Below are positions 1,425 through 2,437 of a stretch of 63,090 nucleotides of DNA, piece after piece. The notes beneath the pieces were generated by a model. The model was not told the DNA's origin. It was given only the letters and a program-made list of their open reading frames with translations, and did no database searches. Location of the stretch: assembly GCA_026025075.1 (NCBI GenBank), contig JAPEUI010000005.1, positions 248,001 to 311,090 of the forward strand. Direction: 5' to 3'. Numbering within the stretch: the stretch's first letter is position 1; each line of letters starts with the position of its first letter. The stretch comes from Vezdaea acicularis (taxonomy: Eukaryota). The position numbers and the translations under genes are program-made.

Positions 1425-1518
1425 CTGATCGTTTCCCCGACCTCCTACGCTGTAGCGGTCGGAAGAGTGTTGACGCATCACTATACACCATCCACGCCTC
1501 GGATTACTTCATTGTGAT
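1425..1518 (+). ncRNA. Candidate structured cis-regulatory RNA element, copy 1 of 3, upstream of veA
   Basis: Core GAGTGTTGACGCATCACTATACACC at 1465-1489. Stems CCGACC/GGTCGG, ATCC/GGAT, and ATTAC/GTGAT around loop TTCATT. Homologous to copies 2 and 3. The repeat is seen directly; RNA function is inferred. Confidence 0.6.
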
Positions 1519-1572
1519 CGCGCTGTGCATCTGCCTTTAATCGATCTATCGATCTTCCCGAAAAGATATCCC

Positions 1573-1587
1573 ATGGTATCATCGTAA
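1573..1587 (+). promoter_or_regulatory. Putative 4-codon uORF (MVSS*) in the veA leader
   Basis: ATG GTA TCA TCG TAA. It is the only + strand ATG I find in 232-2515 outside the predicted leader intron. Confidence 0.45.
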
Positions 1588-1630
1588 AACGAACGACCCG
1601 CCGACACCCTCTATCTGGAAACCAGACTTG

Positions 1631-2099
1631 GTGAGTTGATGCAATTTTCCCTTGTGTGCGTGGCTTGGCCGTGTGTCTCGCTGGGAGACGAAGCGACCGA
1701 ACGACCGACGTGCTGGATCCACCCAGCGTTGTGGCACTCGAACGATCCCGCTGCACCGTCGAATTTCGCTCTGGCCGCAATTTCTCCACGAACTCGACCG
1801 CCGGGACCATTCGTCGCCAACAGGATTCGCCGCCGGTAATCTCTGCGACGGTGCTCGATCCGGCACTCGCACTCAGGATTCGCTTGGGATTCGGGCGCGA
1901 CCGGCGACTTCGGTCCTTTCCATCCCCATTCTCCCCCCGTCGTCGTTGTCGTGCACTCGCCTCCATCGTCTTCGTTCGGGACGCGTGGTGAAACTGAGTC
2001 GGTCATCCAGCACCGGGAACCTCTCTGTGGCAGTGGAATATCCGGCCTCATCGATCGATCACTGCGAAATGCATCGCAGCTAACAGCCTCCTTGAATAG
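1631..2099 (+). other. Putative 5'-UTR intron of veA
   Basis: GTGAGT donor at 1631, GCTAAC branch point at 2079-2084, TAG at 2097-2099. Alternative acceptors are possible at 2220/2223, 2363 and 2371. Confidence 0.55.
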
Positions 2100-2190
2100 A
2101 CTCCTTGGCTTCTAGTCTTCTGCGACTGAAGCTTCACAAATCCCTCGAGGATTAGACGCATCCCTTTTGCACCGCACCAGTCCATCCCAA

Positions 2191-2280
2191 CTGATCGTTT
2201 CCCCAATCCTCTCGCTGTAGCAGGTTGGAAGAGTGTTGACGCCTCACTATACACCGTCCTTAGGATTGCTTCGTTGCAAT
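2191..2280 (+). ncRNA. Candidate structured cis-regulatory RNA element, copy 2 of 3
   Basis: Core GAGTGTTGACGCCTCACTATACACC at 2231-2255. Stems CCAA(T)CCT/AGGTTGG, GTCC/GGAT, and ATTGC/GCAAT around loop TTCGTT. Confidence 0.6.
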
Positions 2281-2340
2281 TCCTAAGTAAAACCCCCCTA
2301 ACGCGCGACTGTCCATTCGCGAACCGCGAGCCTCCATTGG

Positions 2341-2437
2341 CTTACCGTTTTCCTAATCCCTAGATCTCTAGCGGGTTAGAGGAGTGTTGACGACTCACTA
2401 TACACCGTCCGCCCCCCGAATCGCTTCATTGTCGATT
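2341..2437 (+). ncRNA. Candidate structured cis-regulatory RNA element, copy 3 of 3
   Basis: Core GAGTGTTGACGACTCACTATACACC at 2382-2406. Stems CTAATCC/GGGTTAG and ATCGC/G(T)CGAT around loop TTCATT. Ends about 80 nt before the veA ATG. Confidence 0.6.

Follow-up and report, generated by a model that had tools for sequence, protein, structure and literature searches.

The window analysed here is a stretch of 63,090 nucleotides (nt) from Vezdaea acicularis (contig JAPEUI010000005.1, positions 248,001 to 311,090). It begins ~2.5 kb upstream of an open reading frame (ORF; 2516-4396, + strand) that an earlier, sequence-only reading of this DNA had taken for the velvet gene veA. The product of this ORF carries the Velvet domain (Pfam PF11754, E 1.1e-45), which bears out the assignment. 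None of the four upstream ORFs scanned, the largest of that region (1481-1966 and 338-1318 on the minus strand, 3-680 and 571-1119), matches a Pfam family, and the 2.5 kb lying 5' of veA is therefore regarded as non-coding. It contains three copies, here called A, B and C, of an element of ~95-101 nt, built around a nearly invariant 25-nt core and scored with a covariance model (CM):

1425 to 1522, + strand: copy A (5' tail, hairpin P1, invariant core, linker, hairpin P3), ~1 kb upstream of the veA ATG; CM 116.4 bits, E 5.9e-27; alignment
1465 to 1489, + strand: invariant 25-nt core of copy A, variable pair CA; pattern search
2191 to 2284, + strand: copy B, ending 232 nt before the veA ATG; CM 104.1 bits; alignment
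2231 to 2255, + strand: invariant 25-nt core of copy B, variable pair CC; pattern search
2341 to 2441, + strand: copy C, ending 75 nt before the veA ATG; CM match 2341-2440, 104.4 bits; alignment
2382 to 2406, + strand: invariant 25-nt core of copy C, variable pair AC; pattern search
2516 to 4396, + strand: veA coding region with an in-frame intron of 60 nt (2643-2702); Pfam Velvet domain PF11754, E 1.1e-45; homologues

A repeat search identified one three-member family (1432-1493, 2198-2259 and 2349-2410; 73-100% identity to the reference copy) and, together with the pattern search, confirms the three copies noticed earlier, whose ends are placed slightly further 3' by the alignment and the CM. 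Mean column identity across the three aligned copies is 85%; two of the 25 core columns vary, and loops and linkers are largely rewritten, with insertions and deletions. The core, GAGTGTTGACGNNTCACTATACACC, has three matches in the window, all on the + strand and without mismatch. Allowing up to three mismatches on both strands of the 63,090 bases also returns three matches, against 0.00 expected from 100 shuffles. The sequence-only reading had counted 23 invariant bases. The covariance model built from the three copies (R1) scores them at 104-116 bits and finds no further copy in the 63-kb window, either with default filters or with filters off, where the next matches have E values of 1.9-5. 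The spacers between the copies, which had appeared to share no obvious similarity, are indeed dissimilar: self-BLAST of the upstream 2 kb returns element matches of 66-75 nt and nothing else.

RNAalifold, applied to the three-copy alignment, folds the element into two flanking hairpins, P1 (columns 13-39) and P3 (columns 77-100), plus a 4-bp stem within the core. Folded alone, the six hairpins are:

1437 to 1462, + strand: P1 of copy A (outer stem CCGACC/GGUCGG, inner stem CUAC/GUAG), -11.9 kcal/mol, z -3.14
2203 to 2228, + strand: P1 of copy B, the weakest P1, -5.4 kcal/mol, z -0.99
2353 to 2379, + strand: P1 of copy C (CUAAUCC/GGGUUAG), -11.4 kcal/mol, z -3.95
1500 to 1522, + strand: P3 of copy A, loop UUCAUU, -6.6 kcal/mol, z -3.39
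2262 to 2284, + strand: P3 of copy B, loop UUCGUU, -8.0 kcal/mol, z -3.75
2417 to 2440, + strand: P3 of copy C, the weakest P3, -4.1 kcal/mol, z -0.43

In the RNAalifold structure, 96.9% of the 65 cells of the three copies are standard pairs. Six pairs are changed on both sides, compared with 3.0±1.2 after shuffling of the 3' partners (six being reached in 5 of 500) and with zero or one in each of six slid controls. In the outer P1 stem, pairing survives at all three variable pairs, twice through a full double change; P3 likewise keeps all four of its variable pairs, three of which run through the series G-C, G.U, A-U. The helices of the element are supported by these compensatory changes, measured on the same three sequences from which the structure was derived. 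Both flanking hairpins and their compensatory swaps had been recognised by eye in the sequence-only reading, and the arms quoted there are correct.

The stems also distinguish the two strands. Seven cells that are G.U pairs on the + strand would read C.A on the opposite one; therefore, the + strand is the folding strand. The six hairpins folded alone sum to -47.4 kcal/mol on the + strand and -38.2 kcal/mol on the - strand, and four of the six reach z <= -3.1 on the + strand. The Pfam match makes the downstream gene a genuine velvet gene, and the element stands on its sense strand.

Segments of fixed sequence lie between the hairpin clamps: the 5' tail CUNAYCGUUUYCC, the P1 apical segment CUNUAGC, the 25-nt core and the P3 loop UUCRUU. 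The stem within the core, for which RNAalifold prefers AGUG/CACU, is neither supported nor refuted, because its bases never vary. A small middle stem (RTCC:GRAT), also proposed earlier, can be seen; by eye, its pairing is imperfect in copy C, and the 3' arm of this stem doubles as the lower part of P3, so that the two compete.

The copies lie in a zone that is poor in ATG on the sense strand:

900 to 2515, + strand: putative veA 5' leader, an ATG-depleted zone (the ATG-free run begins at 230); ATG counts against shuffles
1573 to 1587, + strand: upstream ORF (uORF) of four codons, MVSS and a stop, 50 nt after copy A; it holds the sole upstream ATG of 900-2515 outside the possible intron
1631 to 2099, + strand: possible leader intron (GTGAGT ... 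GCTAAC ... TAG) containing two of the three upstream ATGs; consensus splice-signal scan only

The sense strand of 900-2515 contains three ATGs, against 15.8±3.3 in dinucleotide shuffles (none of 300 as low), and the opposite strand contains 27 (CAT on the sense strand). On the + strand before the veA start, ATGs occur at 22, 46, 82, 162, 229, 1573, 1639 and 2069, so that the run from 230 to 1572 is free of them for 1343 nt. Strong, strand-specific depletion of this kind is a mark typical of a scanned 5' leader. For comparison, a set of 80 metagenomic loci encoding VeA relatives (L001-L080; 565 kb) was used, 53 of which have at least 600 nt upstream of a script-inferred start. In these 53, with near-duplicates kept, the ATG/CAT ratio is 0.24, 0.29, 0.08 and 0.39 in successive 200-nt bins upstream and 0.95-1.04 past 800 nt. 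Copies B and C lie inside this ~800-nt depleted range of the relatives, and copy A lies inside the longer ATG-free zone of the window. Leader introns were sought through spliced and genomic pairs among the veA-relative loci, and none was found.

An RNA-level role is the best reading of the element, because the region that holds it carries strand-specific, leader-like ATG depletion. Stems that change and stay paired, G.U intermediates on one strand, fixed segments, a shared sense orientation and an ATG-free leader together point to an RNA acting in cis. On this sequence evidence, the three copies may constitute a lineage-specific, structured RNA module in a long 5' leader of the veA mRNA, a tentative reading with a probability of roughly 0.45 that is placed first among those considered. 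Each copy would form a pair of short clamp hairpins, P1 and P3, whose stems would be free to change while still pairing, with sequence-constrained and mostly unpaired segments between them. These segments would be recognised by a factor acting in trans, for which an RNA-binding protein is the likeliest candidate; the three sites could give multivalent or cooperative binding, and binding might set how the veA message is scanned or translated (or how stable it is). Both the factor that binds and the direction in which it acts are steps that we infer.

Several points weigh against such a module. There is no RNA run among the public runs listed for 1000-4400, the four placed runs being DNA contigs, and for this reason the transcription of the copies is itself something that we infer. 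Two of the six hairpins (P1 of copy B and P3 of copy C) fold no better than shuffles, and the folding energies of whole elements are ordinary (z -0.98, +0.93 and -1.74). The covariation is that of three paralogues of one genome, and related sequences can beat shuffles without structure; moreover, the advantage of the structure over its controls is inflated because it comes from the very sequences being scored. The TGACG in the core is a basic leucine zipper (bZIP) half-site, which makes a DNA-level reading possible. The exact core has no match in Joint Genome Institute (JGI) metagenome contigs, viral contigs or prokaryote genome contigs. Among the 80 veA-relative loci, the core is absent at up to six mismatches, and the covariance model reaches a best E of 0.57, with no match upstream of veA on the sense strand. 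Finally, the invariance of 1464-1515 in the close relatives described below is deduced from row order, 40 of the 300 rows of differences being listed.

The four CM matches in the loci of relatives (E 0.57-4.1) are noise: all lie on the minus strand and either are partial or skip the middle of the model. Element k-mers common to 47 non-redundant veA leaders amount to none beyond generic C/T-rich words, and dispersed direct repeats upstream of veA occur in one of 56 upstream regions, that of the window, and in none of the 55 relatives. The element is therefore not a veA regulator spread across the Pezizomycotina, being absent upstream of veA in the 80 distant metagenomic relatives. As far as searched, its sequence appears restricted to one narrow, uncultured, moss-associated lineage.

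Within that lineage, two close relatives (contigs of the public runs X4 and X6; ~93% identical) cover the whole of 1-5000, leader included, with substitutions at roughly 5-7% in the leader and coding region. One X4 record (record 20, 1464-2256) has 51 substitutions; the 40 listed all fall in 1516-2078 and none of them in 1464-1515, where ~3.7 would be expected at 40 per 563 nt (Poisson P ~0.025). All 14 gap letters of this record lie outside the copies. The one helix change among the rows listed, 1516 G>A in both X4 and X6, converts a U.G pair of the copy A P3 into U-A. In both X4 and X6 the contigs are interrupted exactly at two cores, that of copy A (1464-1489) and that of copy B (2230-2256), which suggests that these copies are identical at their cores over the k-mer length in both relatives. 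Run X1 contains 88% of the sampled words, and none of its eight records, all of which are listed, is an extra copy of the element; the X4 depth at the three copies (8.4, 13.9 and 9.6) is near that of their neighbours, with no pile-up seen. As for the upstream ATGs, the rows listed for X4 and X6 contain no difference at the uORF ATG (1573), and 1641 G>C abolishes the ATG at 1639 in each of them.

The element corresponds to no established RNA family among those searched. An Rfam cmscan of 1-6000 with 4227 families gave three weak matches at E<=10, none of which overlaps a copy, and the whole window gave no match at the gathering threshold. The earlier judgement by eye that the element resembles neither the thiamine pyrophosphate (TPP) riboswitch nor hammerhead, hepatitis delta virus (HDV), twister, small nucleolar RNA (snoRNA) or tRNA consensus is upheld by this lack of credible Rfam matches. 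A tRNA or tRNA-derived short interspersed element (SINE) was rejected, ARAGORN finding no gene in 1-6000. C/D snoRNAs carry box C (RUGAUGA) and box D (CUGA) at their two ends; judged by eye on the alignment, the box-like CUGAUCG (5' end) and GUGAUCG (copy A only) do not follow the required order, and copy C does not conserve them. H/ACA snoRNAs have their boxes after two long hairpins, and the hairpins of the element (23-27 nt) are too short for this class.

A coding repeat or uORF was likewise rejected: ATG is missing from all three copies, a stop immediately precedes the core of copy C, and downstream of its core copy B is put out of frame by a 4-nt gap. A frame is open across tail and core in copies A and B (1424-1540 and 2190-2362; ...DRFP...KSVDASLYT...). 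In copy B, a 1-nt deletion and a 1-nt insertion offset each other and so leave this frame open; copy C interrupts it, and a start codon is lacking.

A module acting in DNA is unlikely, but it deserves weighing beside the RNA module. Here the core would serve transcription factors as a composite site within the DNA of the veA promoter or leader; it would be triplicated for occupancy, and the hairpins would be incidental. Single lineages commonly gain binding sites, and the RNA reading has no RNA run behind it among the runs containing the locus. The core holds TGACG-NN-TCA, with its sole variable bases between the halves, like the spacer of a dimer site, and thus shares a half-site with the sites of cAMP response element/activating transcription factor (CRE/ATF) proteins. 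Passages of PMC12731236 report veA as a target of AtfA in A. nidulans: AtfA (ATGACGTCA) binds the veA promoter, and veA expression is altered in an atfA deletion. However, the full CRE/ATF bZIP palindrome (TGACGTCA) is found in none of the three copies, being interrupted by two variable bases (CA, CC or AC), and was rejected as an identity for the core. An invariant block of 25 nt with asymmetric flanks is also long for a single site, and the six compensated pairs and the + strand-only G.U intermediates are left unexplained, since hairpin covariation and strand preference are alien to a DNA site. All copies also share one orientation, on the sense strand and inside the ATG-depleted leader. A repeat without function, either the relic of a small mobile hairpin element or a set of local duplications homogenised by gene conversion, is a distinctly unlikely account. 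Confinement to one narrow lineage would fit it, and the contig breaks at cores A and B suggest an identity such as gene conversion produces. Yet an unfiltered CM search at E<=10 brings up no other copy in the 63 kb, X1 contains no extras and X4 shows no pile-up. Terminal inverted repeats and target-site duplications were not seen by eye at the copy ends, and no inverted pair at the copy ends is among the 25 of 38 repeat pairs listed. On these grounds, and over the 63 kb and the contigs of the public runs, the element does not qualify as a miniature inverted-repeat transposable element (MITE) or other small mobile hairpin repeat. Neutral decay, moreover, would not spare 23 of 25 core bases, rewrite the loops and compensate every variable stem pair.

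Control of splice-site choice is a quite improbable alternative, in which the 5' half of each copy would provide a branch point, a pyrimidine tract and a YAG acceptor. P1 would mask the acceptor or shorten the path to it, and the copies would steer alternative 3' splice-site choice in the leader. The tail (CUGAU, CUGAU and CUUAC) varies solely at the two degenerate positions of yUnAy, the general branch consensus, and a pyrimidine-rich stretch and then an invariant UAG follow inside P1. The leader has only two good donors (GTGAGT at 1106 and 1631), each upstream of a copy. However, the distance from branch to AG is ~27 nt in the copies, which is long for fungal introns, and a better acceptor is present at 2079-2099. 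Because 2100-2515 lacks ATG, a choice among acceptors at 2099, 2220 and 2371 would add or remove no uORF. No RNA run is among those containing the locus, and a crude intron scan of the window is too noisy to calibrate branch and acceptor signals. The splicing account does have a fungal parallel, since TPP riboswitches work via leader splicing (passages of PMC8216456). A ligand-sensing tandem riboswitch, the least probable reading of all, could draw on the ~55 constrained unpaired nt per copy between the covarying helices, which exceed the need of a simple protein-binding hairpin. A tandem arrangement is known for bacterial riboswitches. Against a riboswitch stand the lack of any Rfam riboswitch or ribozyme match, the nature of veA as a regulator rather than a metabolic or transport gene, and conservation within a narrow lineage only. 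The supported structure amounts to two short helices and includes neither a multi-helix junction nor a pseudoknot. Two earlier fungal candidates, in 3' UTRs (untranslated regions), were negative when tested, according to passages of PMC8216456. Of the earlier proposal of a tandem ligand- or protein-binding module controlling veA, the repetition, the two covarying helices and the position upstream of a velvet gene stand, and nothing points to a ligand. It is also very improbable that the module represents a new class of complex-fold eukaryotic regulatory RNA that, in triplicate, would sense a signal and gate VeA expression. In that case, a small molecule or a condition would be read through folding, and gating would proceed by exposing or masking the branch- and acceptor-like tail and P1.

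The element is a new sequence family of a kind, the structured UTR module, that has precedents. Iron-responsive elements and similar protein-binding UTR hairpins occur in one to several copies per mRNA. These are short UTR hairpins with covarying stems and fixed loop or bulge bases, repeatable within an mRNA, and act on scanning when in a 5' leader. Unlike them, the veA module lacks the CAGUGN loop and the C bulge, and its fixed part is a 25-nt segment between hairpins. The fungal TPP riboswitch, which occurs in 5' leader introns, is likewise a structured RNA in a fungal gene leader near splice signals, whereas the module has no Rfam match and precedes the gene of a developmental regulator. 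TPP is the sole established eukaryotic riboswitch class according to passages of PMC8216456.

Candidate structured fungal UTR motifs (SDC, hexA, RPL12 5' UTR and others) are objects of the same sort, with helices that covary and lie in the 5' UTRs of particular genes, and the SDC motif is described in passages of PMC5640933 as a repressor of translation together with a uORF. Motifs from comparative screens are, in passages of PMC8216456, mostly present in a single copy per genome and spread over genera or classes, whereas the module has three copies in one leader and one narrow lineage. Small mobile hairpin repeats, such as MITEs, repetitive extragenic palindromes (REP) and Rickettsia palindromic element (RPE)-like repeats, are also hairpin-rich, ~100 nt long and found in leaders in the orientation of transcription; in contrast to these, the element has three copies only, all before one gene, with no further one in the 63 kb or in the contigs of the public runs. 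The words 'velvet' and 'veA' are not mentioned in the main text of the fungal structured-RNA screens PMC5640933 and PMC8216456, and in passages of PMC4046813 veA occurs in a reference only. At the level of abstracts, the literature on the UTRs, uORFs and transcription start sites (TSSs) of veA yielded no description of a structured or repeated veA leader.

VeA is the hub through which filamentous fungi link light, development and secondary metabolism, and studies of its control have mainly dealt with its protein partners, its localisation and the binding of its promoter. If real, a multi-copy module of structured RNA in the leader of veA would add a post-transcriptional layer to this control. 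The sensor version, if true, would be the second class of sensor RNA in fungi after TPP and the first on a developmental regulator. Two aspects can be tested beyond this fungus: long ATG-depleted veA leaders occur across the 53 loci of relatives, many of them Pezizomycotina, and one lineage appears to have installed a triplicated hairpin-core-hairpin module in such a leader. Known from a single lineage, the module is better regarded as a well-defined lead than as a discovery.

The host appears to be a fungus without a close sequenced relative, as judged from its VeA protein. Among 7998 candidates scored, 1683 are VeA homologues at E<=0.001. One public protein (P0001), 100% identical to the window VeA, comes from the organism's own gene as sequenced in a public run; the homologue next in line has 55% identity only. 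Further named matches, at ~50% identity or less, are mostly from lichen-forming or allied Pezizomycotina (Piccolia, Trichoglossum, Sarea and Xylona). The public runs that contain the locus are labelled moss metagenomes. The veA intron (2643-2702; 60 nt) is free of stops and in frame, and automatic gene calling therefore reads through it: P0001 keeps its 20 intron-encoded residues and begins at the second ATG.

Two further likenesses of the core were noted. An 8-nt stretch right after the veA AUG (GCGUCAAC, 2519-2526) is complementary to GUUGACGC in cores A and B, and over 7 nt in copy C. The pairing of core and veA start was judged to be due to chance, the duplexes of copies A, B and C ranking 2, 10 and 152 among 664 windows. 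Within the copy C core, ACGACTCACTATA (2389-2401) appears identical to 13 bases of the phage T7 promoter; this is probably a coincidence, and copies A and B differ from it at the two variable bases.

The first part of the window is compositionally distinct. Positions 1-900 have 68% G+C, the GC-rich stretch extends over 1-1300, and the same 1300 nt hold long (GA)n, (CT)n and (CA)n tracts with many imperfect inverted repeats between the tracts. A pyrimidine-rich block at ~930-1100 resembles a fungal core promoter or TSS region and may mark one. Short palindromic clusters rich in GATC occur in the leader at 1539-1556 (ATCGATCTATCGATC) and 2049-2063 (TCATCGATCGATCAC); they are reminiscent of GATA-type, light-response sites. 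GATCG also opens copies A and B.

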